From an uncultured Bacilli bacterium (GTDB lineage: Bacteria; Bacillota_I; Bacilli_A; RF39; UBA660): a stretch of 64,000 bases of DNA. Below the pieces are notes generated by a model. The model was not told the origin of the DNA. It saw only the letters and a program-made list of their open reading frames with translations, and did no database searches. Shown here one piece after another: positions 19,866-64,000 of the stretch (position 1 is the stretch's first letter; the number at the start of each line of letters is the position of its first letter). A program made the position numbers and the translations under genes. The stretch covers positions 175 through 64,174 of the forward strand of contig CAKOKU010000006.1 in the NCBI GenBank assembly GCA_934095865.1, read 5' to 3'.

Positions 19866-20041
19866 ATTTATTTTACTAAAATCGCTAATAACCGCTAAAT
19901 TGTGTTCAGATTTTTTATCTTTTCTTAAAATAAATAGAATAATTTTTCTTAATATATAATTTTATAAAATTTATAAATATTAAATTGTTTTTTCTTGTAA
20001 AAAATGGTATTCTTATGTTAGTAATGATAAAGAGGTATGAT

Positions 20042-20899
20042 ATGAAAAGTAAAACTAAAATTGACTTTAAGAATAAGAAAACTATTATAATAACTGCCAT
20101 AATAGCTATCATAGTAGTTGGTCTTATTATATTTTTATGTACAAAACTATTTTCTAAAAAACCAGAACTAACACCAGACAATCCAACTACCAGTGAATTT
20201 GAAAATTACCTAAAAGATAGTATCAAAGGGTTTGATGCAGATTCTATAAATGATTTTATTGAAAGTACAGATAACCTTGCTACTATTAATGAGGTATATT
20301 GGGGAGCAATGTATTCAGGAGATGTTCACAAAAACATAAAAATTCTATATGCTTTAAGTAGACTTTTCTATAATGATTCTACATTAATAGATTATATGAC
20401 TGGTGCCAGTATGTTTGATCTTGATACCGACTTAGGCGATGTAAAGTTATCTATTAAATTTATTAATAAAGTATTAGATGCTAAATTCAAAGATACAACA
20501 ATAGATAAAAATACCGTGATAACTGATGGCTTCTTCTATGGTATTAACGCAATAATTTGTGATGATACATATTGTATTATTCCAATTTCTAGAACAACAG
20601 ATAGCGGTAATGAATCCGATGGTTTATATGCTAGTAGAAAAGGTGATTTAACTAAAGTATCTGGTGGCTATGAAATGACTGTCGAAGATTATTATTATGA
20701 GTTATCATTTGAAGGTATTATGAAAATGGGAATTTATAGCAACGCAGCTAAGGATGTTACTTTTTGCGAAACGAGCTTAACAGAAATGTATTTAGGCGAT
20801 TTCAAAAATACTGATATCTGCAAAGGCGAAGCTACATATGATAAAGTCAAATATAAATTTGATAAAAACTATAAATTTGTAAGTGCAGAAACAGTATAA
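20042..20899 (+). CDS. Single-pass membrane protein, first gene of the Tad-like cluster, function unknown
   Basis: Likely start ATG 20042 (MKSKTKIDFKNKK) after AAAGAGGT. It has a TM helix IIITAIIAIIVVGLIIFLC and then an extracytoplasmic domain of about 240 aa with several Cys. Confidence 0.55.
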   Translation: MKSKTKIDFKNKKTIIITAIIAIIVVGLIIFLCTKLFSKKPELTPDNPTTSEFENYLKDSIKGFDADSINDFIESTDNLATINEVYWGAMYSGDVHKNIKILYALSRLFYNDSTLIDYMTGASMFDLDTDLGDVKLSIKFINKVLDAKFKDTTIDKNTVITDGFFYGINAIICDDTYCIIPISRTTDSGNESDGLYASRKGDLTKVSGGYEMTVEDYYYELSFEGIMKMGIYSNAAKDVTFCETSLTEMYLGDFKNTDICKGEATYDKVKYKFDKNYKFVSAETV

Positions 20900-20912
20900 G
20901 GAAGTGGTTTAT

Positions 20913-21632
20913 ATGAAAAAAAATTATCTTTTATTTGCAATATTTGCGGGCCTGTTATCTAGTACGGTAGTTCATGCGGAAACGTGCCCATTAGAAAAAC
21001 AAGTTGAAGTAAATAATGCTGCCGGTGCCGTAAGTGCTAGTGCTTCTCCCTTAGATTATGAATACGTATATGAAAACGAAGAAACTGGCGAAGAGGCCAT
21101 TGAAACCGCTTATATTGGTGATATTGGCGTATACAACTTAACTGAAGATATTTATGTAGTCGTAAGTGATGGTAAAAACAAAACAACTTTAACTTATAAT
21201 GATTCAAATGATGGTGAAGCTCATGTATCAACTGGAGATATGTATTCAGTAAAAAATTATAAAGTTTCTGTTTATCCAGTAAATGAAAGATGTGGCAAAT
21301 CAGCCATTAAAGAATTAAATGTTACAGTTCCAAGACAAAATAGATTTTATACTAAACAGGGCTGTCAGGAAAACCCAGATTACTTCTATTGTTCACAATT
21401 TATAACGTTAGATGATATATCAAATGAAGAATTTACATTAGGATTAAATGCATATATATCTCAAAATACTAAAAAAGATGAAGATAATAGAAAGCAGGGA
21501 ATAATAGCTGAGACTGCTAATTTTATAAAAAAACATTGGCTTGTAATAACAGTCATCATTTTAATAATAGGTGGCGGTGTAGGAAGTTATATATATATTA
21601 AAAATAAAAAGAGAAAGGAGAGTATAGTTTAA
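20913..21632 (+). CDS. Cys-containing type I membrane protein (signal peptide plus C-terminal TM anchor), function unknown
   Basis: Likely start ATG 20913. Signal peptide ends ...STVVHA|ETCP. C-terminal TM HWLVITVIILIIGGGVGSYIYI is followed by KNKKRK. Confidence 0.55.
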   Translation: MKKNYLLFAIFAGLLSSTVVHAETCPLEKQVEVNNAAGAVSASASPLDYEYVYENEETGEEAIETAYIGDIGVYNLTEDIYVVVSDGKNKTTLTYNDSNDGEAHVSTGDMYSVKNYKVSVYPVNERCGKSAIKELNVTVPRQNRFYTKQGCQENPDYFYCSQFITLDDISNEEFTLGLNAYISQNTKKDEDNRKQGIIAETANFIKKHWLVITVIILIIGGGVGSYIYIKNKKRKESIV

Positions 21633-21633
21633 T

Positions 21634-24600
21634 ATGAAGAATAAAAGTTATAAATATTTTCTTTTACTTTTTACAATCGTTTACATTTTGATTCCTAATC
21701 AAGTAAAGGCTGTAACTGAACGAAGTTGTACAGTATCAGTTGATGTAAGTAATTATGCCACTGACGAGAAAAATAGCAAATATTTTTACGGAAATATTTT
21801 AAAAAATTGTCCAGGTAGTAAAGATAGCAGTTCATATAGCAATCCAAAAGCTACGGTAACAAGTAATACTAGTGGTGTAAACATGAATTTTAGCTATGCT
21901 AGAACCAATGGCGTTTTTAAATTTAATAATTTAACATCTTTAAAAAACAATACTTCTATGACTGTTAAGCTAACATACAAAGACGCAAATGGTACTGACC
22001 AAGTTACAAATTTACGCTTTATGTTTGTTGTGAAAGCTAACACTACAACAACGAATGTGTGTTGTTATAATAAAGCAAGAGGTACATATTATACGTCTAC
22101 ATCTTGTTATGGAAAAGACCTAGAACCTCAAGCAGACCGAAGCAAATGTAATGCACAACAAGATGGCTCCTCTTCCGAAGAACAAGTATCAGCATGCTAC
22201 CGTGTATCAAAGGATAATAAAACATGGCTATATAAATACGATAAAGAAAATAATTTGTTAAAAAATTATGTTTATGTAAACAAAATGGAAAAAGATAAGG
22301 ACGGTAATCCATATACTCAAAAAACTTGCGCATCAGAAAATAATACTTTAAAAGATACAACGGATCAAAATAGTTCATCTAGCTCAAATACTTCAGGGGC
22401 AGGAACTTCATCTAGCACAGGAGGCAATACATCAATAAGTGATACTTCATCAGCTAGTACTGGTGAAAACGTTTGCAAAAATTACAGAATAGAAAGAGTT
22501 CGTTCATATAACTGTACAGGAGATAAGGCATGTAAGAAATTAAAAGCCGCAAATTTAAATTACAAAAATGAAGGATATTTTTACAGTGCAGTTAGCAATA
22601 TGGACAACTATTACTATGTTTATAAAACATATTACGATTGTGAAGGTATTGACAAGACAGAAGCCATGACTTCATTTTGTATAGATCCAGGTCTAGAGGG
22701 ACCAAGAATCAGCGCTGAAAATGGTAACAAATATGAGGGAACGTCAATTGGTGTTACCACAGATTTTGGTAAAGGTTTATACAGATTGTATACATACTGG
22801 TATCTTGAAAAAGGTAATGAAATTAGAAGTATGTATCAAGGTGCTAGTCCAACGGGTAGCGAGGATTTCTTAGATTACGTAATGGATAATGTTGCTAGAA
22901 AATTAAGATTGGTATATGACAGAGAAACTTCTGATTACATTGCTAGTTTGCAAAAAGAATGGAAAGCATACGCAGACCATGATTTAGGTACAGGAACTAG
23001 TTTAGCTAGTAATAAATTAAAAGAAATTTGGCAAGACGTTAGTAATTTTGTTAAAAATGGTAGCGTTACCACAACATCTGATGTTGATAAATGGATAATG
23101 CCAGTAAAAAAATACGAGAAATTAGTTGGCGACTTTAAAGACGGCACAACTGGTTATTATTGCAATGTTCAAGCAGGAGACGGCACTTACAGTGAGTCAG
23201 CATGGAATGAGAACAAAAATAATAATAAAAATACTCATAGCGGCATTGATTTTACAATTAATTCAGAAGATATTGGTAAAGTACCAGTTTATGCTGCTCA
23301 AAGTGGCGTTATTAAATTTAGATGGGATAATAATAAAACTGCTGGCAATGCTATTGGTATTGTTGTAACGCTTTCTGATGGTACTGAATTATTAACTAGG
23401 TATTTGCATTTGGCATCATTCGCTTCTGGCATAAAAACCGGTGCAACAGTCCAAAAAGGGCAAATAATTGGTTATGTAGGAAATACTGGTAAATCTAGTG
23501 GTCCACACTTACATTTTGACATTTCTATTAATAATAGTAACAACGGTTCAAAAGCTCCTCATATTAGTCCAAGAAAATATTTGCCAATGGACAATATCGG
23601 TATTTGTTCTCAAGAACAATTTGAACAAAGTGAACCAACTGTATCAGAATCCACCGAAAATTCAACATTAACAAGCGTAAAATTTGATATTGATGAAACG
23701 GTAAGCAGTCAGAAAAAGAATGGCAATAAAGGCTTTGAGACAGAATTTAAGGTAACAATTAGTTCTGAAAATATTAATGTAATAAATGAAATTATAAATT
23801 CTAAAAAATATAAAATTTTAGTAAAAACAAGTGAAGGTGAAGAAATAAATAGTGAAAATTTACAAGTAACAACAGTAAATGACTGGAGCATTGATCCAGT
23901 TAACGTTGTTGCAACAGCAACGTATAAGGTTAGTTGTGATAATATTTACAATTATGTGTCTGGCGATTCCTTGGAATATATTAGAGTTGGTATGCAAATA
24001 AGTTATACAGAGCCAAAATCCGCAGACAATGTTGTTATATTAAGTTCAACAGAAACAAATAATGATAGGAAAACAACTAAAGGAAGTCCAAAAAATTTAC
24101 AGGATTTTGTAGTTTTTCTAAATGGTACTTTAAATAAATATGCTGGTATAACCATAACGTTTGATAAAGATAAAGAAAACGTATGTAAGCCAACGTTTGC
24201 ACTTCCATGTACTGGACCAGAGACGGTAGTTTACTTAATAGAAGGAACTCAATCAGGTGCTTTATTTAATACGGTTATGAATGGTATTAAATCGGTTGAT
24301 GATCTAAGAAATGTTATTTCCAGTGCTAATGAAATGGTTCAAAATCTTATCAATGGTAATTTTACTAATCTTCTAGATAAAGATAATTTACAAGTAATTA
24401 GTGGGTTACTATATAACTTTGTCGACAAAGCTTCTATTGTAAGAAATATAAAAAATGAGCTTAGCTTCTTAAATACTTTAGGAAATAATGGCAATAAAAC
24501 AGCAGCAGCCTTATATAAGGAAATAAATGCCTCATCATTTAGTACTAACTCCGCTGAAAATTTTAAAACCTTATCAAGAATAATCTCTAGAACATTAGTC

Positions 24601-27600
24601 AATGTTGCTCTAAATGGTTATGATAAAGTATCTAGTGAGTGGCAAGAAATAGTAGAGGCGGCTCAAGCCAATGCAGAAAGTAAATTAACGTCTAATTCGC
24701 TAGTGGAACTTTTAGAGAATATTGGAAATGCGATCACCAGTTCAAAAGAAAATTTGAAAAATGTCTTTAGTGCCGTTGAAAATCTAACTGATTATTTAAG
24801 CAAATTTACAAACATTACGGACATAGAAAGTGCAGTTACTTCATTCAGTGCAACAATTAAAAGCGTTATTACTGATGGCCTAAGCAAGTTATCAGGAATA
24901 AAAGATGGATTAACAAGTATGTTGAATCAATTGGGCAGTGGTGTAACTAGCTTATCACAAGTTAGCAATATATTTGATTCTATAACTAATGCCCTAATCG
25001 TAGATTGGGATAAATGTATAATAGGAGAAAATGGTGTGGAAGCTACTGACCCAGGTGGAAATTCATATACAATTCAGGAAAGTAATGATGATGGAAGTAA
25101 TATATTCTGTACAATAGTTTGTAAAGAAGATTATGCTGTAAAGTCTCCAGGTAGTTTAGGCACAGTATATGCGGGTAGATATATTTCTACTAATCTAGAT
25201 AATGTTTATCATGCAACTTTAGGTATGGCTGGTCAAAGAACTTGTGCTACGACTGAAATAAAAAATGATAAATATGTGGAAACCGCTACGGCAAAAAAAG
25301 ATGAAATGTTAGCAACTTATAATGAATTCTATGAATCATATGCCAAATATAAAGCCTTAAAAACATATGAGAAAACAGCTAATCAAAAAGAAAGTGGAAC
25401 ATCACATCCTGCTTATACAACTTTTGATAAATTAAATACAGATAAAATATTTGATAAATTACAGTTGGAACTAGAGAGCGTCATAAAAAATTCATTTAAT
25501 ACATTTTTTGTAAGTATTTTTGGTAATGAAGCCGCTGAAGAAGTGATGACAAATTTTGCCCAAGATGCCCTAGAAATGGCAGCTAAAATGGGTGCTTTAG
25601 CTCTTAGTGGCGATTTAAATGCTGATAATGTAAAATCTTTAGCAACAAGCTATGTAAAACAAAAGGTAGATCAAACGATTCAAAATTTAGAAGGCGCTGT
25701 CCAAAATTTACTATCAAGTTTGACAAATAATTGTATCAGTGCTGCTGAAGACGTGTTGAAAACAGCTGGTGTAAACCTATTATCTGGTGGTGGACAATTA
25801 ATTATAGAAGCAGCGTGTAATTATGGACCCGGTTTATTAGATACTTTATTTGGTATAGGTGAAGTATTACGAGCAGCCTGTGCGGCATATTCAGGTTTCT
25901 CTATGGCATTAAGTACAGGAATTACAAGTGTTAATGCTTCAACTGGTTATAAGATCTTCCAAATTGAAGATGGAATACCATATACTTATAGTTATTATCC
26001 ATATGTCTATGAAAATAGTGAAACACTTCAAAAGAAGCTAGCAGCAAATTTTGTTGAAGCAGAAAATGTTGCGAAAAATTTAATTACAAAAAATGCTTCA
26101 TCAAGTGGAAATAGAGCGCAACTTTGGGTTATGAAATACGAAGGTACATTTAAAATGGGATCGCTAAATTATGGTAGTATCATTTTTAGGACTGCTAAAC
26201 AAATATATTATTTAACTCAAGATATTCAAAGATTCGGTAACTTAGACATATTAGATTCAGGTGCCTTAGAAAATCAGCTTAACAGTTTTATAAATAGCAT
26301 TCAAGGATTAAGTGGTGGTTTTAAATTAAGCTGGTTGAAGAAAAATTACGATTCTTTATCAACTGATGGCTTTGACGGACTATCTGGCATGATAAGTAAC
26401 GTAATGAGTATATTTTCTGATATTAGCGGTGCAACAGACAATGTTTTAACTGGTATAACAGACTTAGTAGATTCAGCACTTTTAGTTTATTACGATTTTT
26501 TAGGTATATTTAACCCATTCTATTCTTCATTAGCTGAAATAAGAAGAGAGATGGAAGGATATAAAGAAGAATACAATGCTCTTCAAGAAGATTTGACTGA
26601 TTTAGCTGATCGTATGAATGCTTGTACAGAATGGACAAATACTTATCAATTTAATCCACAAATTGAGTTTACATATGGATATTCAAATAATAATTTGTTA
26701 GACTATATTACTAACAAAAAGAGCATAACAACAGATAAAATTACCCTTAAAGCAATCAATAAAAATGAAGAACCAGAACAAATTACATATTACTGCCAAC
26801 AAGGCGTTGATATTAAAGATGTTCAAAACTGGGATGTAATAACATCCGGTAAATGTACTACTGATGATGGAATTTTTGGTTCAGTATTATCTTCATTACT
26901 TGGTGATGATAATGCAATGAGTTCTATATTAAATGTCTTCAGAGAAAATTCAGCTGGTTTAAAGAAAATCCTTAACAGTTCAAAAGTAAAAGAATATATT
27001 TCAAGTACTGGTTATGCTGATAAGATAAGTAATTTCTTATGTAGTGGTTTAGGCGAAGCTTTCTGTGGCATCTTTGGCGATGAAAATGAAGATGGCAGTT
27101 TAGTAACTTTAGTACCAGGTTCTATTGTTTATAAATTAAAAACATCGACTAATTCATCATCAAGCAATGGTATTCAAAGTTGGACTGGACTATTAAGCGC
27201 TATTGGTGGCGGTGGTTCATTAGATTCAATTCTATCCGGAATCACTAGAAACTTGACTTACAGCACAGGTATTCCAAATGATGTAAAATATCATGATGTT
27301 GGTCGCGTCGTTAGTATTTCTAGATACGGTAATCCAGGTGTCTCAGTATCCGGTTTAAGTTGGACTAGTATTCTATCTAACATAGCTTCTTATGTTACTG
27401 ATAAAACTGGTATTAATGCTCTTGACAAAATAAATGATACATTAATGTCTGTTACTGGCCAAGGAGCTCAACAATTCATTTATTATAAATCAAGTAAACC
27501 ATATTGGACTTATTCAAATAAAGGTATTTATATAATCAATCCAGATGTAGTTGATCCAGTTGATGCTCCAGTTTTAGTAGATAATGGTGATCCTGCTTTA

Positions 27601-28593
27601 ACAGATGATTCAATTAAATCAGGTACCGATGCTGAAAAGCAACCAGAAGGTTTAGTTTATCCAATTGCTTTATCAACTGCTGAAGGTAAATATCATTATC
27701 AAATTAAAATCAATAATGTTGGTCAATATTATGATAATGTTAATAATTTAGGTCGTATTATAGATGATACTGGTTATGTAAGCGGATTATACGCTAACAA
27801 ATATGTTTGTGATTATGAAGTTAAAAAAGAACCTGAACATGAAGAAACCTGTGAAACAATTATTGCTTCTAGCGATTGTACTTCTCAAGAAGAACCAAAA
27901 ACTCTATACTTTAAACAGTACAAAGCAAATTACAATGATAAAACTTTAGAAAATCAAGTAAATACGTGTGTAACCAAGTTGCTTTCTGAAGGAGACACTT
28001 GTTGTAGTTATGTAGAAAACTATGAAGATAGTTTACCAGACAGTAGTAAAGAATTGTATAGAAAAATGTGTAAGTGTAATGGAACTAAAGTAATTGGCAC
28101 TATTAATGACACGACTGATGGTTCAAGTTCATCTAGTTCATCTGCTTTAATAACTAAGACCGGCACATTACAGTTCTACACAAAAGTTGTATCAAATTAT
28201 GACTTATTCCCTAATGCAAATAGTTCAAAAGGTTATAACTGGAGTGGTCAGACATCTGGTTATGAGAATGCCACTGATACAAACAAAACACCATCAAAAG
28301 AAAACTTATCAGATATAATTGATGAAATAGAAAAAATTGGTGATGGTATTTATGATGAAGATAATGCAGATAAATATTTAGAGTATTCTATAACTTTAAA
28401 TGGTGCATGTATGTCAAAAATCAAAGAATACAATGATCAAAAAGAAGTTTTAGGTTTAGGCTTTGGCGATTATACAGCTGGTTCAATAAGTCAAGAAACA
28501 AGAGATTATACATCAAAATTCTTACAAGAAATAGAAGAAAATAATGAGTACTCATCTTGTAAAATATCAAATTACTTAAATAGAAACAAATAG
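21634..28593 (+). CDS. Giant (2319 aa) secreted Cys-rich protein with M23 (LytM-type) peptidoglycan endopeptidase domain
   Basis: Uninterrupted 6.96-kb ORF starting 1 nt after the upstream stop. Signal peptide ends ...IPNQVKA|VTE. Contains Ser-rich linkers, M23 motifs HSGIDF and GNTGKSSGPHLHFDI, and a long central region of short amphipathic L/I/N/S-rich helices. Both termini are Cys-rich. Confidence 0.85.
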   Translation: MKNKSYKYFLLLFTIVYILIPNQVKAVTERSCTVSVDVSNYATDEKNSKYFYGNILKNCPGSKDSSSYSNPKATVTSNTSGVNMNFSYARTNGVFKFNNLTSLKNNTSMTVKLTYKDANGTDQVTNLRFMFVVKANTTTTNVCCYNKARGTYYTSTSCYGKDLEPQADRSKCNAQQDGSSSEEQVSACYRVSKDNKTWLYKYDKENNLLKNYVYVNKMEKDKDGNPYTQKTCASENNTLKDTTDQNSSSSSNTSGAGTSSSTGGNTSISDTSSASTGENVCKNYRIERVRSYNCTGDKACKKLKAANLNYKNEGYFYSAVSNMDNYYYVYKTYYDCEGIDKTEAMTSFCIDPGLEGPRISAENGNKYEGTSIGVTTDFGKGLYRLYTYWYLEKGNEIRSMYQGASPTGSEDFLDYVMDNVARKLRLVYDRETSDYIASLQKEWKAYADHDLGTGTSLASNKLKEIWQDVSNFVKNGSVTTTSDVDKWIMPVKKYEKLVGDFKDGTTGYYCNVQAGDGTYSESAWNENKNNNKNTHSGIDFTINSEDIGKVPVYAAQSGVIKFRWDNNKTAGNAIGIVVTLSDGTELLTRYLHLASFASGIKTGATVQKGQIIGYVGNTGKSSGPHLHFDISINNSNNGSKAPHISPRKYLPMDNIGICSQEQFEQSEPTVSESTENSTLTSVKFDIDETVSSQKKNGNKGFETEFKVTISSENINVINEIINSKKYKILVKTSEGEEINSENLQVTTVNDWSIDPVNVVATATYKVSCDNIYNYVSGDSLEYIRVGMQISYTEPKSADNVVILSSTETNNDRKTTKGSPKNLQDFVVFLNGTLNKYAGITITFDKDKENVCKPTFALPCTGPETVVYLIEGTQSGALFNTVMNGIKSVDDLRNVISSANEMVQNLINGNFTNLLDKDNLQVISGLLYNFVDKASIVRNIKNELSFLNTLGNNGNKTAAALYKEINASSFSTNSAENFKTLSRIISRTLVNVALNGYDKVSSEWQEIVEAAQANAESKLTSNSLVELLENIGNAITSSKENLKNVFSAVENLTDYLSKFTNITDIESAVTSFSATIKSVITDGLSKLSGIKDGLTSMLNQLGSGVTSLSQVSNIFDSITNALIVDWDKCIIGENGVEATDPGGNSYTIQESNDDGSNIFCTIVCKEDYAVKSPGSLGTVYAGRYISTNLDNVYHATLGMAGQRTCATTEIKNDKYVETATAKKDEMLATYNEFYESYAKYKALKTYEKTANQKESGTSHPAYTTFDKLNTDKIFDKLQLELESVIKNSFNTFFVSIFGNEAAEEVMTNFAQDALEMAAKMGALALSGDLNADNVKSLATSYVKQKVDQTIQNLEGAVQNLLSSLTNNCISAAEDVLKTAGVNLLSGGGQLIIEAACNYGPGLLDTLFGIGEVLRAACAAYSGFSMALSTGITSVNASTGYKIFQIEDGIPYTYSYYPYVYENSETLQKKLAANFVEAENVAKNLITKNASSSGNRAQLWVMKYEGTFKMGSLNYGSIIFRTAKQIYYLTQDIQRFGNLDILDSGALENQLNSFINSIQGLSGGFKLSWLKKNYDSLSTDGFDGLSGMISNVMSIFSDISGATDNVLTGITDLVDSALLVYYDFLGIFNPFYSSLAEIRREMEGYKEEYNALQEDLTDLADRMNACTEWTNTYQFNPQIEFTYGYSNNNLLDYITNKKSITTDKITLKAINKNEEPEQITYYCQQGVDIKDVQNWDVITSGKCTTDDGIFGSVLSSLLGDDNAMSSILNVFRENSAGLKKILNSSKVKEYISSTGYADKISNFLCSGLGEAFCGIFGDENEDGSLVTLVPGSIVYKLKTSTNSSSSNGIQSWTGLLSAIGGGGSLDSILSGITRNLTYSTGIPNDVKYHDVGRVVSISRYGNPGVSVSGLSWTSILSNIASYVTDKTGINALDKINDTLMSVTGQGAQQFIYYKSSKPYWTYSNKGIYIINPDVVDPVDAPVLVDNGDPALTDDSIKSGTDAEKQPEGLVYPIALSTAEGKYHYQIKINNVGQYYDNVNNLGRIIDDTGYVSGLYANKYVCDYEVKKEPEHEETCETIIASSDCTSQEEPKTLYFKQYKANYNDKTLENQVNTCVTKLLSEGDTCCSYVENYEDSLPDSSKELYRKMCKCNGTKVIGTINDTTDGSSSSSSSALITKTGTLQFYTKVVSNYDLFPNANSSKGYNWSGQTSGYENATDTNKTPSKENLSDIIDEIEKIGDGIYDEDNADKYLEYSITLNGACMSKIKEYNDQKEVLGLGFGDYTAGSISQETRDYTSKFLQEIEENNEYSSCKISNYLNRNK
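23236..23514 (+). other. M23 catalytic core within the giant protein
   Basis: HxxxD (H-S-G-I-D, codons from 23236) and HxH (H-L-H, 23506-23514) zinc ligands are both intact, with the conserved GxxGxSxGPHLH context. Confidence 0.8.
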
Positions 28594-28607
28594 GTAGGTG
28601 AAGAATA

Positions 28608-29408
28608 GTGAAAGAATCTTATTGGGGTTACTGGTTAGTAATGCTTGGTATTTTGGTAATAGGCGTTATGCTTCTTATCAACAGTACTACTAACGGTACA
28701 ACCCATGATTATTATGAATTAAAAGAAACAACATCGGCTGCCGTTATAGATGCAGTAGACTACTCTTACTACCGTCTATATGGTGATTTGAAAATATCAA
28801 AAGAAAAATTTATAGAGAACTTCATCCGTAGATTTTCTGAGTCAGCAACTATGACTAAAGAATATAACGTATCATTTTATGATATTCATGAAGTTCCTCC
28901 TAAAGTAAGTGTTAAAATATCTACTGTTAGTAACGCTGTAAACGTTGCTAACAGTAGTAACTCTTTCGATTTAGTTAATAAAATAGATATTATATTAGTT
29001 GGAGGCTCAAAAGATAATAATAAAACACCAGGTAAAACTGAGCCAACAACTCCAGAAACATGCTATATCTTAAATACGACACAAACATTTATGAAGATTA
29101 TTAAGGAAATCTTAGTTGATGGTACTAGTACTTATGGTGTAGATACCGCATTAGTTCAAAGAATAAGACATGCTGGCTTTACTAATTTAAATTCATGGTC
29201 AAAAACTGATTGTAATATATCAAGTGATGATTGTGTAAGTAAATTTAATTCAGCATTAAACTTAGATTTCAGTGGTGCTTTACAACTTGCTGATACTAGA
29301 GAGCTTTTAATAACCAACGACCCAACTTATGTCAAGGATTCAAATGATGAAACTAGTGGCATCTTAGGTTATGCGTTAAATAAAGGCTATATAACCCTAA
29401 CTAAATAA
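28608..29408 (+). CDS. Single-pass membrane protein of the Tad-like cluster, function unknown
   Basis: GTG start after AGGTGA. The N-terminal hydrophobic helix WGYWLVMLGILVIGVMLLI is followed by a domain of about 230 aa. No prepilin cleavage motif. Confidence 0.55.
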   Translation: MKESYWGYWLVMLGILVIGVMLLINSTTNGTTHDYYELKETTSAAVIDAVDYSYYRLYGDLKISKEKFIENFIRRFSESATMTKEYNVSFYDIHEVPPKVSVKISTVSNAVNVANSSNSFDLVNKIDIILVGGSKDNNKTPGKTEPTTPETCYILNTTQTFMKIIKEILVDGTSTYGVDTALVQRIRHAGFTNLNSWSKTDCNISSDDCVSKFNSALNLDFSGALQLADTRELLITNDPTYVKDSNDETSGILGYALNKGYITLTK

Positions 29409-29427
29409 GAGTAGAAAGAGGATAAAA

Positions 29428-30249
29428 ATGGATAAAATTAAAGAAGAACTAAAAAAAGTTCTCGCTAATAAAAATACACTTACTATTATTATTGTAATTA
29501 TTGGTATTATTGGTTTATATGCAATTTATAACTGGCGTGTAAATCAAGCCGTAACAACAATAAGGGTACCATACGCAAAAAAAGAATTAACTAGTCGTAC
29601 TCAAATAACTAGTGATGCCATTGGTACCACAGAGCTACCAAAAAGAATAGCTCGCAATTTAGGAATTTTAACATCTACAAGTAACATAACTAATAATTAT
29701 GTAAAATATGGTGAAACAATTCCTGCTAATAGCTTCTTTTATAAAGATTATATTGTTTCCTTTGAAGAAGCTACTACTAATGAATTTAGTGATATCCCAG
29801 ATGGTTATACAGCATACAACCTAGCAGTTGATATAAACTCAACATACGGTAACTCAATATACACTGGCAATTACGTAGACCTTTATGTAAAAGCAACCAG
29901 TGCTAGTAGTAAAGTAATCTTTGGTCGCTTAATAAAAAGTATCAAAGTATTAGCCGTATTAGACTCATCAGGCAATGATGTCTTTGAATCATCAACTGAA
30001 GCTAGAACCCCAACTCAAATGTGGTTCGCTGTACCAGATGAACTATATACATTATTAAAGAAAACCGAATATATTGGTGGCATCAGCGTTATGCCAATTC
30101 CAAGAAATGCAAGTTATACAGCAACACCTAGTGATACAACTATTGACTCACAATATATTCAAAACTTTATCTTATCTAAATCAATAACAGTTAGTCAAAA
30201 TTTCAATAGTAATACCAATACGGGTACTGAAACAGAAAATCAAGAATAG
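29428..30249 (+). CDS. cpaB: CpaB/RcpC-like pilus assembly protein, paralogue 1
   Basis: TM helix, then a SAF-like segment IRVPYAKKELTSRTQITSDAI. DGYTAYNLAVDINSTYGNSIYTGNYVDLYV matches the recalled CpaB core (g.rAvsv.vd...G.i.PGD.VDv). Confidence 0.6.
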   Translation: MDKIKEELKKVLANKNTLTIIIVIIGIIGLYAIYNWRVNQAVTTIRVPYAKKELTSRTQITSDAIGTTELPKRIARNLGILTSTSNITNNYVKYGETIPANSFFYKDYIVSFEEATTNEFSDIPDGYTAYNLAVDINSTYGNSIYTGNYVDLYVKATSASSKVIFGRLIKSIKVLAVLDSSGNDVFESSTEARTPTQMWFAVPDELYTLLKKTEYIGGISVMPIPRNASYTATPSDTTIDSQYIQNFILSKSITVSQNFNSNTNTGTETENQE

Positions 30250-30266
30250 AAAGTGAGTTATAAAAG

Positions 30267-31040
30267 ATGAAAAACGCTCTTGCACCTTTAAAAAGGTTCA
30301 TTCAAAATAAAAATACTGTTACTATCCTTTGTATAGTAGCTGGTATCTTAACTTTAGTAATAGGGTATAACTACCGAGTTAATAAATCAATTGACTTGGT
30401 TTCTATTCCCTATGCTCTAAAGGAAATTCCAAGAAAAACCCAAATAACAAAAGATATGATAGGACACGTTAAAGTACCACGTTCCTTAATTAAAAATGCT
30501 AAAAATATCATAACGACAGACAAAGAATTAATAAATTATTATTCTAGTTATTCTACTGATATCCCAGCTAAAAGTTTATTTTATACTGACACAATCCTAA
30601 AAGAAGAACAAATGCCAGATTATGCTTTTACAAATATGCAAGATGGTTATACCGTATATTCTCTTAAAGTAAATAACAAATCAACGTATTCAAATCGTTT
30701 CCGTCCAGGTGATTATATTGACCTTTATATTGAAGCAAAAGATCAAAATCGTGTCATGATGGCAATCTTAGTTAAATCTATTAAAATTAAAGCCATTAAA
30801 GATTCAGCCGGAAATTCTATTCTAGAAAATACACTATCTGGTGGTACTCCAGCTGCACTTCTATTTGAAGTAGAAGATAAACTATTTGATTTACTTAAAA
30901 AAAGTGAATATGTTACTAATGTTGAAATAATTCCTGTACCAAGAAACTCTAACTATACTAAAGAAGAGGGTGCAACTACGGTCTCAACAGAAGAAATAAC
31001 TAACTATATTTATAATAAAACTGAAGTTATAACTAATTAG
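30267..31040 (+). CDS. cpaB: CpaB/RcpC-like pilus assembly protein, paralogue 2
   Basis: Same architecture and collinear with paralogue 1: VSIPYALKEIPRKTQITKDMI, DGYTVYSLKVNNKSTYSNRFRPGDYIDLYI, LLKKSEYV...PVPRNSNYT. Confidence 0.6.
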   Translation: MKNALAPLKRFIQNKNTVTILCIVAGILTLVIGYNYRVNKSIDLVSIPYALKEIPRKTQITKDMIGHVKVPRSLIKNAKNIITTDKELINYYSSYSTDIPAKSLFYTDTILKEEQMPDYAFTNMQDGYTVYSLKVNNKSTYSNRFRPGDYIDLYIEAKDQNRVMMAILVKSIKIKAIKDSAGNSILENTLSGGTPAALLFEVEDKLFDLLKKSEYVTNVEIIPVPRNSNYTKEEGATTVSTEEITNYIYNKTEVITN

Positions 31041-31051
31041 AAAGGATTAAT

Positions 31052-32455
31052 ATGAACGAGGCAATATTTGAGCAAATGGACTTTGGTCCGCTATCTGAAT
31101 TTCTAGCTGATGATGATATTACCGATATATCTTATTCTAATAATGGTCAAGTTTGGTTAAAAACCTTATCTAAAGGTGTTTATCAAGTAGAAAGACCTGA
31201 TATAAATAATACATTTATGGAAAAGTTAGCATTCCAATGTTCAAACGTCATGGGTAAAACATTTAATATGGCTCATCCCTTATTAGATGCTGAATCAGCC
31301 GAATTACGTATGAACTTCATTCATGAATCAATTGCTACTAATGGTATTGCCTGCTTAATCCGTAAAACCCCGGCTAAAATTCGTCTTAATAAACAAAAAT
31401 TATTAAATGAAGAATATATAACAGAAACCCTACACGATTTTTTAATGAATTGTGTAGCAGGTCACTGCAATATTATTGTTGCCGGTGAAACTGGTTCTGG
31501 TAAAACCGAGCTATTAAAATATTTAGCAAGTCATATCAAAGAAAATGAAAAAATTATTACTATTGAAGATACTTTAGAACTTCACTTAGATAGAATTTTC
31601 CCTCATCGTGATATTGTTGCTATGAAAACTAATAATATTTGTAGTTATACTGATGTTCTAGTAGCCTGTATGCGTCAAAACCCAATTTGGATTTTACTTT
31701 CCGAAGTTCGTTCTGGTGAGGCCGTTATGTCTGTACGTAATGCCATATCATCAGGCCACAATATCTTATCAACAATCCACGCTGATAAAGCAAGATCAAT
31801 CCCATTGCGTATGTATTCCTTAATGGAATCAAGTCAAGATGTTCAACAATTTCTAACAACAATTCATAGATATGTTCAAATAGGTATTTATGTTAAAGGT
31901 TATTTTAGTAAAAAATTTAATCGTTTTCAAAGAGAAATTATTGAAGTTTGTGAATTTTACGTTGATGAAAACAATCAACCATGTACTAATGAAATATATA
32001 AAAAATCATTAGATGGCCAATATGTATTAAAAAATCCAACTCAGCAGTTACTAGATTATTTAAGTATTCAAAATGTTATGTTAGAAAAAGATACCTTCCA
32101 TTTGGGAGATAAAGAAGAATATGATGGTAATGTTGAAGATGATTTAAAGAAAAGTCAGAGTAATGGCGAAGTAAGTAGTAATGTAAATACGGCACCGGTT
32201 GAAAGTGTTAATACACCTAGTCAAAGCAATCAACCATCAGAAACATTAAATATTCCAAATCAAAATCTTACTGCTTCTACTAACCAAAGTAATATTCCTA
32301 ATAATTTAAACAATCCTAACAATAATCAAAGTCCAAATAATACGCCAATCAATAATAATCCGTTACCAAATGGCGTACCAGTAAATAGTTTCTTTAGTAA
32401 TAATACTACACTAAATAACAATATAACTACTTCTAATAGTGAAGAAGTATTATAG
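31052..32455 (+). CDS. tadA: CpaF/TadA-type secretion ATPase with N/P/S-rich C-terminal tail
   Basis: Walker A GETGSGKTE (31484-31510), Asp box ITIEDTLEL, Walker B RQNPIWILLSEVR, His box LSTIHA. The size and the following TadB/TadC-like genes fit the Tad subfamily. Confidence 0.8.
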   Translation: MNEAIFEQMDFGPLSEFLADDDITDISYSNNGQVWLKTLSKGVYQVERPDINNTFMEKLAFQCSNVMGKTFNMAHPLLDAESAELRMNFIHESIATNGIACLIRKTPAKIRLNKQKLLNEEYITETLHDFLMNCVAGHCNIIVAGETGSGKTELLKYLASHIKENEKIITIEDTLELHLDRIFPHRDIVAMKTNNICSYTDVLVACMRQNPIWILLSEVRSGEAVMSVRNAISSGHNILSTIHADKARSIPLRMYSLMESSQDVQQFLTTIHRYVQIGIYVKGYFSKKFNRFQREIIEVCEFYVDENNQPCTNEIYKKSLDGQYVLKNPTQQLLDYLSIQNVMLEKDTFHLGDKEEYDGNVEDDLKKSQSNGEVSSNVNTAPVESVNTPSQSNQPSETLNIPNQNLTASTNQSNIPNNLNNPNNNQSPNNTPINNNPLPNGVPVNSFFSNNTTLNNNITTSNSEEVL

Positions 32456-32464
32456 GAGGATAAA

Positions 32465-33367
32465 ATGGAGTTAATAATTTTAATTGCACTTGCACTATTT
32501 GCCTTTTCCTACCGTAATAGTGCTAATGCCTCAATCGATGGAGCTTTCAAATTCATTCAAAATGGTGTAACCAACCTTTATGATAGATATGCTCCATATA
32601 GTTTTAAACAAGTAAGAGAAAAAACCAAAGAATTAGGTGAGGAATATACTGTAAGACAATATTTAAGTCAAGTTGCCTTGTTTGGCATCGTTGCTGGTGG
32701 CATCGCATATCTTTACTTTTATAATTTATTTATAACTATAATTTATGCAGCCATCGCCATTGCTTTTATTCCATATCTATCATATCTAAGAACTCAACGA
32801 ATTTATTCTGAATATATATTCGAGCAAATTCAAACTTATACTACTAACGTTATCATGGAATTTAATACGACTCAGAGTTTTGTTAAATCTCTAGAAGGTG
32901 TAGTTGAATCTGGTATCTTAGAAAAACCCGTTGTTGATGATGTTAAAACGATGATTAATATGGCTTATGCTAATGGTACTATTGACCAATCAATTGCTTA
33001 CTTTAATGAAAAATATCCATATTATATGGTCAAGAATATGCACCAATTATTTTATCAAATTACTAAGGAAGGTTCTAAAGACTCTGGTGAATCCCTAGAA
33101 AATATGTCATTAGACATCGATGCTTTAGTAGAAGGTGTTTATCGTGATAGAATGGATAGAGCTAACTTCCACAAAAAGTTCTTAACTTTCGGTATGGCCT
33201 TATTCTTATTAGCAGCCGTTATGCAATTCTTATTAGGTCGTGATTCATATATTAAACTACTAGAAATGTGGTATGTTAAACTAATCTTACATTTAATAAT
33301 CATAATAAACTGCTATTTCTTATTAACTGGTGAGAAATATTATAATGAAGATGTGGGGGTAGAGTAA
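32465..33367 (+). CDS. tadB: TadB-like platform protein (single T2SSF domain)
   Basis: N-terminal TM helices, a central cytoplasmic helical domain and C-terminal TM helices. It is about 300 aa and lies immediately after the ATPase gene. Confidence 0.6.
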   Translation: MELIILIALALFAFSYRNSANASIDGAFKFIQNGVTNLYDRYAPYSFKQVREKTKELGEEYTVRQYLSQVALFGIVAGGIAYLYFYNLFITIIYAAIAIAFIPYLSYLRTQRIYSEYIFEQIQTYTTNVIMEFNTTQSFVKSLEGVVESGILEKPVVDDVKTMINMAYANGTIDQSIAYFNEKYPYYMVKNMHQLFYQITKEGSKDSGESLENMSLDIDALVEGVYRDRMDRANFHKKFLTFGMALFLLAAVMQFLLGRDSYIKLLEMWYVKLILHLIIIINCYFLLTGEKYYNEDVGVE

Positions 33368-33368
33368 T

Positions 33369-34157
33369 ATGTATTTTGAAATTCTTGGCTTATCAGCCCT
33401 ATACTTATTTGTCTTAAATAAAACTAAAGTTATTGATGTCAAAAAATGTATAAATGATAACGTTGGCTATTTCCTACGTTTTAAAGAATCTGATTATGAT
33501 TTTCTAGTGCGTACTCGTTATGGTGAAGGCGTTGACCCCGATTATTTATTCGGTAAAAGAATTACTCAGGGACTAGTAGTAGGGCTATTAGTAATCTGCT
33601 TCTTCATTAATAAATTCAGTTATATTTATGTTATTTTGGCTATTGTTGCTGGTATTTTCATGTTTAAATCAAGTTATAACAGCTTGAAAAATTATTATAA
33701 AAACAATTTGCACACCATTGATGCCATGTTGCCACATTACTTAAAAGGCTTAGAAATCTTAATTCAACACTATACCGTACCAGTTGCCATTGCTAAAAGT
33801 GTCGACACGGCCCCAGAAATCTTTAAAAAAGGCTTATTAGAAATGATTGCCAAGATAAATTCTGGTGATAGTTCAATTGAACCTTATATGGACTTTGCTC
33901 GTACTTATCCAGTTCGTGATTCTATGCGTATGATGCGTTTACTATACCGTCTAGGTTTAGGGCGTCAAGATAGAAAACAAGAACAATTATTAAATTTCTC
34001 TCGTTCAATTTCAAGCTTACAACAAAAAGCGCGTGATACTAAATATAAAGAACGTCTAGATAAAATGGAAAATAAGACTATGAGTATGCTTATTTCTACT
34101 GGCTTAGGTGTTATGATATTACTAATTTTAGCAGTAATGCAAATGATGAATGGTTAG
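33369..34157 (+). CDS. tadC: TadC-like platform protein (single T2SSF domain)
   Basis: Starts 1 nt after the tadB-like stop. Topology is TM, helical domain (YMDFARTYPVRDSMRMMRLLYRLGLG), then a C-terminal TM. Confidence 0.6.
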   Translation: MYFEILGLSALYLFVLNKTKVIDVKKCINDNVGYFLRFKESDYDFLVRTRYGEGVDPDYLFGKRITQGLVVGLLVICFFINKFSYIYVILAIVAGIFMFKSSYNSLKNYYKNNLHTIDAMLPHYLKGLEILIQHYTVPVAIAKSVDTAPEIFKKGLLEMIAKINSGDSSIEPYMDFARTYPVRDSMRMMRLLYRLGLGRQDRKQEQLLNFSRSISSLQQKARDTKYKERLDKMENKTMSMLISTGLGVMILLILAVMQMMNG

Positions 34158-34264
34158 ACAATTAATTATTTTACAAATCCATTTCTTGAATAGGGGAATG
34201 GTTTTTTTATTTTTCAAATTTATCAATGATAATACAACAATATTACCAAAACTTAAAATTAATA

Positions 34265-34319: not shown

Positions 34320-36059
34320 ATGAAAAGAAAAAAGGGATTTACAATACCAGAACTTCTAGCTGTAATTGTTATAATAGGAGTTCTAACTGTCATGTCAGTA
34401 GGTACCTACACATCGATTAGTAAAAGTGTAAAAGAAGCTGAATTAAAAGAAAAGATAGAATATTTAAAGTCAAAAGTAATGGAATATGCTAGTGACAATA
34501 ATATAGAAAGAGATACTATTACAGTTAGTACTTTAATTGATTTAGGTTACATCGAAATGGATCACCCTGAAAACGCCAAACAAGAAAAGATTGATAATCC
34601 TGTAACTGGTGGTTATTTAGATTGTACTAACTTTACTATTGTTAGAGATTTAGATGATTATAATATAACATATGACTTAGAAGGCAGCTGCTTAACTGCT
34701 GATGTAGAATCAAAATCAGGTGAAATAAAAACAAGTCTTTATGTTTTAACTAATAATGGCTTAAAATCTTTAGATGAATTTAAATTATCAGACAAAGATA
34801 TCATTATAGATAATAATAAGGAAAATAATGACAATAAAAATAATAACAGTGGCAGTAGTATAATTGGCGGCTTATTTGGTGGCCTACTAGAAGGGATTTT
34901 AGGCAATAATGCAAATTCAATTCTAGGTGGTATCTTTGGCGGTTTAAAAAATATTTTTAGTTGGTTATTTCCTAATGCTTTTGCAACTCCCGTAAATTCT
35001 ATATATGATATTCATCCTTGGGCGGGTAGTGATGTATACTTATTTGTTGATTTTAGTGATGTCAGTTTTAATATTAAAGATAATAGTGTAACTTATGACA
35101 TCGGTGGTTTAAGTACAAGTACGAAAGAAGGAAACATTTGTTCAAAATCTAATGTTAATGTAGATTGTGCCAATGTTATAAGAGTTGAATCCGTACTGTT
35201 GTTTAACAGCTTAGTTAGTGCTACCGTCAATACTGATTACGGTTATGTTACGAAAAAAGCTTTGGTTAGAATTGATAAAGAAAATCCTACCATAAAAATA
35301 GATTATGATCAAAGTTATACTAGTAATAGTGTTCCTGTTTATTTGACTGGTGAAGATGGAGCGGGAAGTGGAATCGCTGGTTATTACTTTGGTAAAAAAG
35401 CTAGTCCAACTATTGATGATTTTACTACAACAAGTACCTATCATGTTAACGAAAATGGTAAATATTATGCGGCGACAATTGATAACGTAGGGAATATGTC
35501 AGAAATAAAAACAATCAATATTAGTTCGATTGATAAAGATGCGCCAATTGGTTTTATAAATCCTAGTGGCCGTGATGATTGGTCAACCTCAGATTTTACT
35601 TTCAACTTTGGTTGCAGTAGTGATACAAAAGCCGGCTGTGCAAATAAGATTGTTTATTCAATTTACAATAATGATACTAGTTCTTATATTGTTCAAAATG
35701 TAACTGTTGATGAAGCCTCTACTTCTTACACTGTAACGACACCAAATAATACTAGTCTTTCATCTATTACCTTAACTTATACAATATATGATAATGTTGG
35801 AAACTCAAGTACCAAGGTAGAAACTATTCATACCAGAATTGATAAAGTAGACCATTCATCTAATAATAATTCTGGTGGCGGTAATCCAGGTCCAAATGAT
35901 GAAAATCATGCCTGTAAAGGCTGGGAAGGCTTGGCTTGTGTCTTAGCTGGAGCCGCTGCTGGTGGTTTAGGTGGTGCTCAATTAGGTGGCGGCATCGGTG
36001 CTGCGATTGGGGCTGCGGCCGGAGCTCTTGGCGGCTTACTATGTGTAATTTTCTGTTAA
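34320..36059 (+). CDS. Large modular type IV prepilin (class III signal peptide) with Ig-like modules and glycine-zipper segments
   Basis: N-terminus MKRKKG|FTIPELLAVIVIIGVLTVMSV has a short basic leader, Gly-1, Phe+1, Glu+5 and a hydrophobic helix. Boundaries IDKENPT, IDKDAPI and IDKVDHS suggest Ig-like modules. GxxxG-rich segments sit at about 34851-34975 and 35921-36056. Confidence 0.8.
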   Translation: MKRKKGFTIPELLAVIVIIGVLTVMSVGTYTSISKSVKEAELKEKIEYLKSKVMEYASDNNIERDTITVSTLIDLGYIEMDHPENAKQEKIDNPVTGGYLDCTNFTIVRDLDDYNITYDLEGSCLTADVESKSGEIKTSLYVLTNNGLKSLDEFKLSDKDIIIDNNKENNDNKNNNSGSSIIGGLFGGLLEGILGNNANSILGGIFGGLKNIFSWLFPNAFATPVNSIYDIHPWAGSDVYLFVDFSDVSFNIKDNSVTYDIGGLSTSTKEGNICSKSNVNVDCANVIRVESVLLFNSLVSATVNTDYGYVTKKALVRIDKENPTIKIDYDQSYTSNSVPVYLTGEDGAGSGIAGYYFGKKASPTIDDFTTTSTYHVNENGKYYAATIDNVGNMSEIKTINISSIDKDAPIGFINPSGRDDWSTSDFTFNFGCSSDTKAGCANKIVYSIYNNDTSSYIVQNVTVDEASTSYTVTTPNNTSLSSITLTYTIYDNVGNSSTKVETIHTRIDKVDHSSNNNSGGGNPGPNDENHACKGWEGLACVLAGAAAGGLGGAQLGGGIGAAIGAAAGALGGLLCVIFC

Positions 36060-39468: not shown

Positions 39469-39541
39469 AATAATCCCTTTCATATTTATTATTCCATAAA
39501 TTAAGAAATCTATGCTTAATATTTGTTTTCTTAAAGTGTAC

Positions 39542-39568
39542 TTTTCGTAGAGTTGCATACTCTATGAA
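39542..39568. repeat. Left inverted repeat (IRL) of the candidate invertible element
   Basis: TTTTCGTAGAGTTGCATACTCTATGAA. Its reverse complement occurs at 39807-39833 with one mismatch. Confidence 0.9.
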
Positions 39569-60763: not shown

Positions 60764-61033
60764 ATTATTCCTCCAATTATATTTTATCATAAATATTAAT
60801 AAAACAATATCTTATTTATTCTACACTACATCAATTAATTTTGACCTAAAAATGCTTTAATTATAAATGAAAAATAAGTAAGTTGATTATCTTAAAATGC
60901 TAAAATCACTTTTTAATAAAGTTCGTATCAGATAAAGAAATGCTTTTTTCTAATCTATTAATTTAAAGCTTTTAATTTTCAAATAATATGGTATAATTGG
61001 CAATGTTGCTTTATCCTTTAAAGGGAGTCTTTT

Positions 61034-63798: not shown

Positions 63799-63811
63799 TT
63801 ATGGAGTAAAA

Positions 63812-64000
63812 ATGAAAAAAATTATTAAAGAAGTATCTTTATTCATTGTCATAGTATTGTCTTTATTATTTATTAATTCAGCAAATGTCCAAGCTATATC
63901 CAAACAAACTTCATATGTAAATATTAATGATATGAGTTCCCTAGAAGTTGGAAATTTATATTTTACGAATCTTTCGTTTAATGATTATTCTTCTACTTCT
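63812..64000 (+). CDS. Partial CDS (5' end only): secreted protein downstream of lemA
   Basis: ATG 63812 after GGAG. The signal peptide ends ...NSANVQA|IS. The ORF runs off the window end. Confidence 0.45.
   Translation, partial: MKKIIKEVSLFIVIVLSLLFINSANVQAISKQTSYVNINDMSSLEVGNLYFTNLSFNDYSSTS

Follow-up and report, generated by a model that had tools for sequence, protein, structure and literature searches.

The 64,000-nucleotide stretch of DNA analyzed here (the window; positions 175 to 64,174 of GenBank contig CAKOKU010000006.1) comes from an uncultured Bacilli bacterium of the order RF39 and contains a nine-gene operon on the + strand (19985-34157), the third gene of which encodes a secreted protein of 2319 amino acids (aa). 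An original prediction, made from the sequence alone, had described this large protein as a Cys-rich product of a pilus operon with an intact M23 metallopeptidase domain and had suggested a filament-associated effector, tip protein or length-determining component. Our analysis points instead to a family of probably adhesive proteins with a likely thioester domain (TED)-like region, encoded together with a conserved Tad-like gene module in uncultured gut Bacilli, in which the M23 domain is very probably an accessory insert and not the organizing core. The large gene was divided into the following parts.

21634..28593, + strand: large protein, 2319 aa, ATG start, ribosome-binding site GGAGAG just 5'
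21634..21714, + strand: Sec-type signal peptide, aa 1-27, with basic MKNKSYK, hydrophobic residues 9-28 and predicted cleavage NQVKA/VTE
21715..22467, + strand: hypervariable Cys-rich N-terminal region and Ser/Thr linker, aa 28-278, of variable length
22468..23067, + strand: TED-like N-lobe and helical lobe, aa 279-478, with invariant Cys349 in FCID and invariant Arg422 in NVAR
23068..23649, + strand: inserted M23 metallopeptidase module, aa 479-672, a presence/absence indel in the alignment
23650..24228, + strand: TED-like beta-sandwich and hairpin, aa 673-865, with invariant Gln823 in LQDFV
24229..24990, + strand: helical stretch 1, aa 866-1119
24991..25263, + strand: family signature four-Cys domain, aa 1120-1210, pattern C-I-I..D..GN.Y..C.I.CKEDY..PG..Y.G.Y...GQR.C.T, the best-conserved part (identity 0.75)
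25264..27273, + strand: helical stretch 2 and mixed region, aa 1211-1880, varying in length across the family; putative stalk
27274..28590, + strand: conserved C-terminal part, aa 1881-2319 (identity 0.57-0.59), matched in most family representatives

The basic layout agreed with the original prediction. The open reading frame (ORF) and its signal peptide were confirmed, exactly 13 of the 40 Cys fall up to residue 349 (at least 13 had been counted in the first ~350 residues), a further 8 lie between 2059 and 2148, and the C-terminal strings CDYEV, ETCET, DTCCSY and KMCKCNG stand where they had been placed. The signal peptide is the sole strongly hydrophobic segment of the protein, and a comparable N-terminal signal peptide was found in all homologues. 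The reported lack of an LPXTG motif or other wall anchor also held, as Pfam detected no anchor domain and the C-terminus is hydrophilic. The sole LPXTG-like string is an internal LPCTG at aa 857-861 (24202-24216), which is not followed by a transmembrane segment or charged tail; since only P-C-T is conserved in relatives, its resemblance to a sortase signal is probably coincidental.

The C-terminal part comprises a beta-rich domain (1881-2060), a Cys-rich linker (2061-2160) and an alpha/beta end domain (2161-2319). About 900 residues of amphipathic helix had been proposed for the protein, and confidence in them is low: helix was assigned by DSSP mostly to aa 1210-1660, on an AlphaFold model of aa 1120-2319 built with six sequences whose confidence was low (predicted local distance difference test, pLDDT, 38.8) and which was not taken to fold search, and weak matches to helical bundles were also obtained. 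The two helical stretches measure 250 and 410 aa in the window protein compared to about 50 and 107-195 aa in short family members, so that their combined length falls from about 660 aa to about 160-250 aa. The short members keep the same machine, which fits a stalk or spacer.

TEDs contain an internal Cys-Gln thioester that reacts with a target amine to form a covalent isopeptide link. The AlphaFold model of P0090, a 933-aa minimal family member (64 sequences; pLDDT 77, predicted TM-score 0.59), had as its top PDB match 6fwy, the class II TED of Enterococcus faecium TIE86 (Foldseek E 7.7e-4, probability 1.0, 271 of 280 columns, TM-score 0.33 on target, root-mean-square deviation 9.6). The order of strands and helices in the model agrees with the published TED topology: Cys71 ends the third strand, helices and a six- to seven-stranded sandwich follow, and Gln275 opens a hairpin strand (275-280). 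The Cys-Gln spacing of 204 equals that of EfmTIE86, whose bond residues are Cys88 and Gln292 (PMC6194298). In characterized TEDs, the bond-forming Cys lies on strand C within the motif [YFL]CΦζ. The Gln belongs to a late hairpin, where strand Q shows a weak ΦQζΦΦ motif, and class II members carry an inserted beta-sandwich of ~75 residues ahead of this hairpin; only the Cys and the Gln are universally conserved (PMC6194298).

Both residues are nearly invariant in the family. The Cys of the motif [YF]C[LI]D was found in 61 of 64 members of the wider family and 19 of 19 of the subfamily, corresponding to F348-C349-I350-D351 in the window protein (Cys349 codon, nucleotides 22678-22680), and the Gln of [YL]Q[KDR][FYM][IVL] in 62 of 64 and 19 of 19, corresponding to L822-Q823-D824-F825-V826 (Gln823 codon, 24100-24102), in agreement with ΦQζΦΦ. 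Profile alignment with hhalign connected the window protein to the modeled homologue at both ends of the domain, pairing its N-lobe with the P0090-type N-lobe (probability 96%, E 2.6e-9) and the strand NLQDFVVFLNG with the Gln275 strand (P 6.9e-5). Two faint database matches point the same way: Pfam TED_2 in one of 36 relatives (E 0.045), and, in a PDB profile search with the family N-domain that gave just two matches, the Cpa TED 4c0z (E 0.084). Taken together, these results make it likely that the conserved N-terminal domain is TED-like and of class II; thioester-mediated covalent binding by the large protein is plausible but somewhat short of probable. A Cys protease or transglutaminase was also considered for the FCIDPG region and dropped, as there is no invariant His there. 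The TED-like domain is among the points that the original prediction did not contain.

The M23 domain is intact, as had been claimed. Pfam PF01551 (Peptidase_M23) matched aa 534-634 with E 1.6e-20 and 73.5 bits against a cut-off of 28.7, the zinc-ligand motifs HSGID (from nucleotide 23236) and HLH (23506-23514) lie exactly where predicted, and all catalytic residues are present: H535 and D539 in HSGID, H594 in YLHL, and H625 and H627 in PHLHF. Across the homologue alignment, however, the module is a clean presence/absence indel, and it is not the organizing feature of the protein. P0002, the closest homologue besides an identical database entry, is 86% identical over the last 1650 residues and has no counterpart of aa 479-672: its ...KEIWNDVKKYAE runs directly into ...SLNFSVDETV. 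Only five of about 17 close homologues carry the module (the window protein, P0003, P0004, P0005 and L001), along with P0018, P0019 and P0057 in the wider family. Because the insertion point is the junction of helical lobe and beta-sandwich, the enzyme lies inside the TED-like domain; to our knowledge, no enzyme domain inside a thioester domain has been described. P0026 (1536 aa) has an M15/VanX-like D-Ala-D-Ala peptidase at aa ~150-290, N-terminal to the YCxD motif, so that wall-peptide hydrolases have been fused to the family twice independently. In P0005, NSGID replaces HSGID, with Asn for the first zinc-ligand His, while its near-twin L001 retains the His; judging from these sequences, the insert may be decaying in some lineages.

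To define the family, an exhaustive profile search was run with aa 1120-2319 (E <= 1e-3) and representatives were taken at 50% identity. It comprises 163 cluster representatives, most of them signal-peptide proteins of 900-1800 aa, and a hidden Markov model built from 64 distant members (A8) recovered the window protein with E 6.8e-64. None of the representatives checked had a database name, and a Pfam scan of 36 of them found nothing beyond one M15/VanY domain, two with Flg_new repeats and the sub-threshold TED_2. The family signature, C-I-I..D..GN.Y....YC.V.CKEDY.F.LPG...G.YF...G.R.C.T, corresponds to window aa 1128-1207. A single back-translated four-Cys motif retrieved at least 119 GTDB species genomes, nearly all of them gut metagenome-assembled genomes (MAGs) from human, rabbit, chicken, goat and mouse, labeled as uncultured Bacilli, Tenericutes or Mycoplasma (including Mycoplasma sp. 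CAG:956 and CAG:776), which suggests RF39/RFN20-type orders. Mean identity to homologues rises from 0.17 at the N-terminus (aa 28-278) to 0.57-0.75 in the signature and C-terminal domains. Such a gradient, from a variable to a conserved end, fits binding at the distal end and docking at the proximal one.

Two side observations concern the copy number of family members. Some genomes hold two large-protein modules on different contigs, namely L019 and L023 in Lapin-014__bin58 and L024 and L028 in Lapin-008__bin76, which suggests paralogous adhesin systems in one cell. At the end of the window, an ORF that runs off the edge (63809-64000, + strand) begins with the signal peptide MKKIIKEVSLFIVIVLSLLFINSANVQA; its match to the N-terminus of the family profile is weak (E 5e-4) and probably reflects signal-peptide similarity only.

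The operon around the large gene is as follows, with the number of syntenic loci obtained by searching the ORFs of 90 loci with the window neighbor proteins.

19985..20899, + strand: 304-aa protein with N-terminal transmembrane segment; close relatives only, 8 of 90 loci
20883..21632, + strand: 249-aa protein with signal peptide, Cys-containing ectodomain, C-terminal transmembrane segment and basic tail; 86 of 90 loci
28608..29408, + strand: DUF5411 protein (Pfam E 5.2e-52); 85 of 90 loci
29428..31040, + strand: two CpaB/RcpC-like proteins with N-terminal transmembrane segments; 84 of 90 loci
31052..32455, + strand: T2SSE-family ATPase, TadA/CpaF/VirB11-like (Pfam T2SSE E 1.3e-28); 80 of 90 loci
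32465..34157, + strand: two polytopic membrane proteins of 300 and 262 aa with paired transmembrane segments; 79 of 90 loci each
34179..34211, + strand: terminator-like hairpin (34179-34201) and T-run, closing the operon

The order is constant across loci (signal-peptide protein with C-terminal transmembrane segment, large protein, DUF5411, CpaB-like, ATPase, two polytopic proteins), the 249-aa gene stands directly 5' of the large gene wherever it occurs, and missing genes fall mostly where contig ends cut the locus. The tie between the large protein and the ATPase cluster that had been predicted was thus borne out by synteny in 79-86 of 90 related loci, and the contrary possibility that homologues occur mainly in prophage tails or outside the module was not what we found. 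We regard the family and its synteny as all but certain. Housekeeping genes lie on either side (rpsD, M16 peptidases, hrcA-grpE-dnaK-dnaJ, ffh, ruvAB and pcrA), and the position next to rpsD is common to other MAGs, indicating that the cluster is a vertically inherited chromosomal feature and not a prophage or conjugative element.

Individual components resemble parts of Tad machines to different degrees. DUF5411 proteins share a conserved N-terminus, MKESYWGYWL followed by a hydrophobic helix, and relatives are usually 135-140 aa; by sequence they appear pilin-like in size and layout, with no recognizable prepilin cleavage motif. The CpaB-like pair matched Pfam RcpC with E 3.6e-6 and 1.2e-4 (27.3 and 22.3 bits against a cut-off of 28.8) and TIGR03177 weakly. 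The ATPase scored 117 bits with the NCBIfam VirB11 model and 105 bits with the TadA-family model, each under its cut-off. The 300- and 262-aa proteins are TadB/TadC-like in position, size and topology only: no T2SSF match appeared in 58 homologues even at E 10, and the PDB gave chance matches only. These two proteins are 66-92% identical between loci whose large proteins barely align, a contrast which suggests that the platform is under very strong constraint while the adhesin diversifies quickly. For the 300-aa protein (32465-33367), the range of 66-92% was seen across loci L009-L090, whose large proteins share about 25-40%.

The placement of the large gene in a pilus operon therefore needs qualification: it is third in a nine-gene ATPase operon, but the sole recognizable prepilin gene lies beyond the operon hairpin and accompanies the cluster in only 2 of 90 loci. 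That gene (34320-36059, + strand) encodes a 579-aa protein with the type IV prepilin N-terminus MKRKKG/FTIPELLAVIVIIG (GFTxxE) and, in an unusual pairing, a Gly/Ala-rich hydrophobic C-terminal segment at aa 557-579. Beyond it, two further proteins with N-terminal transmembrane segments, of 438 aa (36076-37392, + strand) and 707 aa (37435-39558, - strand), matched nothing in Pfam, NCBIfam or PHROG. A 550-aa protein with a serpin domain (59138-60790, - strand; Pfam E 1.4e-43) is encoded farther along in this reduced-genome gut bacterium.

A miniature of the module was found on plasmids. In pLS20 (NC_015148), gene 34 encodes the thioester protein TIE_pLS20 (...VYCIDPDKPAP..., Pfam TED_2 E 1.3e-6) and is followed by two small genes, a 126-aa DUF5411-like protein (Pfam DUF5411 E 1.4e-5), an ATPase annotated as tadA, and proteins of 267 and 245 aa. 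The ATPase matched the profile of the window-family ATPase with E 4e-52, and hhalign paired the 300-aa family with the 267-aa protein, itself a weak full-length T2SSF match, and the 262-aa family with the 245-aa protein, not crosswise. The Listeria grayi plasmid pLGUG1 has the same gene order, and its 262-aa protein matches the window 262-aa family with E 3.2e-10. A search with the window ATPase returned 845 plasmid records, mostly from Bacillus, Listeria and Enterococcus. The DUF5411 link was made by Pfam and hhalign, tblastn of the window DUF5411 protein against plasmids having returned nothing. When single plasmid TED sequences were compared with the family TED profile by hhalign, the Cys motif alone could be aligned.

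TIE_pLS20 mediates cell-cell attachment, is needed for efficient conjugation in liquid and requires its TED Cys; it has no sorting signal and acts independently of sortase, and how it is held on the donor cell was left open (PMC8092201). For pLS20, the ATPase has been interpreted as VirB11 of the type IV secretion system, with genes 36, 38 and 39 entered as unknown (PMC8557374). No VirB4, VirD4 or relaxase was detected around the chromosomal module within the 64-kb window, which argues that the adhesin and ATPase set is a unit of its own. One side observation concerns the C-termini: the family motif (V)S(L)N(N)LFPN...G.NW, at window aa 2187-2203 (nucleotides ~28192-28242), is faintly echoed at the extreme C-terminus of the gene 34 product (aa 736-756, DDPFPNGTPDG), with a non-significant hhalign E of 0.19. 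On sequence grounds a shared docking motif is possible.

Our preferred explanation, which we judge somewhat better than even, is that the large protein is a giant, stalked, Sec-exported surface adhesin, possibly covalent, that is presented by the Tad-like apparatus, with M23 as an accessory. The conserved C-terminal half would be held at the cell surface by the apparatus (the DUF5411, CpaB-like and 249-aa proteins), and the helical stalk would project the variable, reactive TED-like head outward, where it could fasten the cell, possibly covalently, to a target surface. The ATPase and platform proteins might assemble or energize the structure by which the adhesin is held. M23, or M15 in one relative, would cut peptidoglycan peptides locally, either in the cell's own wall, for the exit or anchoring of a 250-kDa protein, or in the wall of another bacterium. 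Display by the apparatus is evenly balanced in our estimate, and we infer both the orientation of the protein and its target.

Several results weigh against this explanation. The TED assignment of the window protein is indirect, by way of a homologue with 25% identity, and the superposition of that homologue on 6fwy is modest (TM-score 0.33 on target, root-mean-square deviation 9.6). No threshold match to Pfam TED or TED_2 was obtained for the window protein, and searching the PDB with a profile of the window-subfamily TED region gave chance matches and no TED; a whole-family profile likewise gave chance matches only. TQXXΦW, the third TED motif, is degenerate: the window has DNVARK, with Arg for Trp, and the family reads xxxA[LI]R at this position, with Gln in just 18 of 64 members and an invariant Arg at the end. 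The TQXXΦW residues, which lie in helix 2, are not essential for bond formation in TEDs (PMC6194298). The C-terminal half was modeled poorly, at the pLDDT of 38.8 given above, and the stalk and docking roles are guesses. Finally, neither a Flp pilin nor a prepilin peptidase turned up in the operon or the scanned window ORFs, nor did Pfam detect TadB/C there, a gap that the original prediction had not mentioned, and "Tad-like" here denotes resemblance and not demonstrated membership.

The large protein could alternatively be a wall hydrolase and machine scaffold that opens or lines a passage through the cell's own peptidoglycan, its TED-like domain anchoring it covalently, and independently of sortase, to that wall. 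VirB1, PrgK and TcpG open such a passage for type IV secretion. The intact M23 domain, the recurrence of wall peptidases of two different families among the homologues and the lack of another wall anchor all fit this alternative, and the cutting of cross-bridges would yield a free amine that a thioester could capture. Most RF39 bacteria, moreover, are predicted to be walled despite the loss of most penicillin-binding proteins and lyt/cwl endopeptidases, and may need scavenged muropeptides (PMC10868615), making both own-wall and neighbor-wall targets of M23 plausible. Yet most members of the family, including the 86%-identical orthologue with the same machine, lack a hydrolase domain, so that hydrolysis cannot be the conserved function, and hypervariability at the distal end is more typically seen where foreign surfaces are bound than where the protein binds the wall of its own cell. 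We consider this alternative unlikely, in keeping with the earlier view that the protein is not a simple wall-remodeling enzyme.

Strict co-occurrence with the ATPase module could also mean that the cluster secretes proteins in a type II-like manner and that the large protein is its cargo, a toxin or enzyme against neighboring bacteria. M23 and M15 domains can be bacteriolytic, and DUF5411/CpaF operons in Clostridia have been labeled secretion-related (PMC9523054). This effector role is quite improbable given that the protein has its own Sec signal peptide, its most conserved part is the C-terminus and not a variable toxin tip, no immunity-like small gene follows it, and lytic domains are absent in most members. 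A stranded phage tail tape-measure protein or tail-tip lysin, suggested by the similarity of M23 to PHROG tape-measure and endolysin families and to two phage proteins in the PDB, is already contradicted and scarcely credible: the PHROG matches are limited to aa 516-680, i.e. the M23 stretch, the 64 kb contain no phage genes and are flanked by rpsD, M16 peptidases and hrcA-grpE-dnaK, the locus is syntenic across species, and the viral fold library (BFVD) gave no meaningful match to the P0090 model. The same confinement of PHROG matches and lack of a viral fold match, together with helices that shrink while the machine stays the same, rule against a tape-measure function. Among the roles named by the original prediction, a tip or surface adhesin is thus the best reading, whereas a length-determining role is unsupported. 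A spoIIIA-like sporulation channel was considered in view of the ATPase and the LytM-type domain. It was dropped because the module is also present on plasmids whose conjugation systems are vegetative, and because it contains CpaB and DUF5411 and not SpoIIIA proteins.

The presented-adhesin explanation admits a bolder form, which we hold to be rather unlikely, in which the TED-type adhesin, DUF5411, ATPase and two membrane proteins are an autonomous covalent-grappling organelle of Gram-positive-type cells. Conjugative plasmids would borrow the module for mating-pair formation; in walled RF39-type gut Bacilli with reduced genomes, it would be retained on the chromosome as a means of fastening onto other bacteria. 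M23 would then cut cross-bridges of the target, exposing an amine that the thioester captures, with covalent attachment to the partner cell and possibly harvesting of muropeptides as the outcome. If true, this would explain how the anchor-less pLS20 adhesin stays on the donor.

Bacteria of RF39 and related orders are abundant in the gut, uncultured and reduced in genome, and their interactions with hosts and neighbors are little understood. The module described here is among the most widely shared surface systems of RF39-type bacteria and is unannotated, and its interest lies in the giant TED-like adhesin family and the Tad-like module, not in M23 or length-measuring. Thioester adhesins and Tad-like machines are already known; what is new is their obligatory coupling, the architecture, the enzyme insert in the TED and the spread across uncultured gut Bacilli. 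The thioester link offers a concrete chemistry, a -17 Da cross-link and amine capture, and the pLS20 link offers a genetically tractable model whose ATPase has been read as a stray VirB11. The enzyme within the thioester domain suggests peptidoglycan as a possible ligand.

Compared to known systems, the head of the protein is closest to the class II TIE adhesins (BaTIE, SaTIE and EfmTIE86; the 6fwv/6fwx/6fwy family), with which the family shares the beta-sandwich ahead of the Gln hairpin, seen in the P0090 model, and the motifs [YFL]CΦζ and ΦQζΦΦ with near-invariant Cys and Gln. Unlike TIE proteins, the window protein has no C-terminal LPXTG sorting signal with transmembrane segment and charged tail and no CnaA/CnaB isopeptide or ester stalk domain detected by Pfam, its stalk being predicted to be helical, and its TED-like domain holds a 194-aa enzyme insert that class II TIE TEDs do not have. 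That insert (aa 531-639) aligns with lysostaphin/LytM-type M23 peptidases with all metal ligands and the catalytic His of lysostaphin kept, but in contrast to those enzymes it is a dispensable part of a 250-kDa non-enzymatic protein and comes without an SH3b or LysM targeting domain.

The apparatus shares with Tad (type IVc) systems the CpaB/RcpC-like proteins and a CpaF/TadA-like ATPase that is followed by two polytopic proteins. It differs in that no Flp pilin, TadV, TadZ or TadE/F/G was detected in the window, the platform proteins have no T2SSF match, the ATPase fits VirB11 as well as TadA, and the constant partner is a large Sec-dependent protein and not minor pilins. A DUF5411/CpaF operon of Clostridia (Roseburia, Ruminococcus, Eubacterium), labeled secretion-related by a natural language processing screen (PMC9523054), likewise combines DUF5411 with a CpaF-type ATPase and also encodes a PilC/GspF-like protein and, as its large surface protein, one with InlB-like repeats. 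In the window family, Flg_new/InlB B-repeats occur in two members. That operon is a computational prediction for which no TED or M23 link was described, and it is likened to the window module by description.

The plasmid modules are the nearest parallel to the whole arrangement. The pLS20 adhesin has 767 aa and CnaB-like or MucBP-like stalk domains, whereas the window protein has 2319 aa, a helical stalk, the four-Cys domain, a different C-terminal part and the M23 insert. The window cluster further exceeds the pLS20 set by the two CpaB-like genes and the 249-aa gene, and it is chromosomal, between rpsD and hrcA-dnaK, while the pLS20 set stands in a conjugation context. Apart from the ATPase and one membrane protein, the similarity is at the level of profiles and motifs only. 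At this level, the pLS20 and Listeria modules share with the window a secreted protein with [YF]CIDP near its N-terminus and no LPXTG motif and, next in order, a small DUF5411-like membrane protein, a TadA/VirB11-like ATPase and a pair of ~265-aa membrane proteins.

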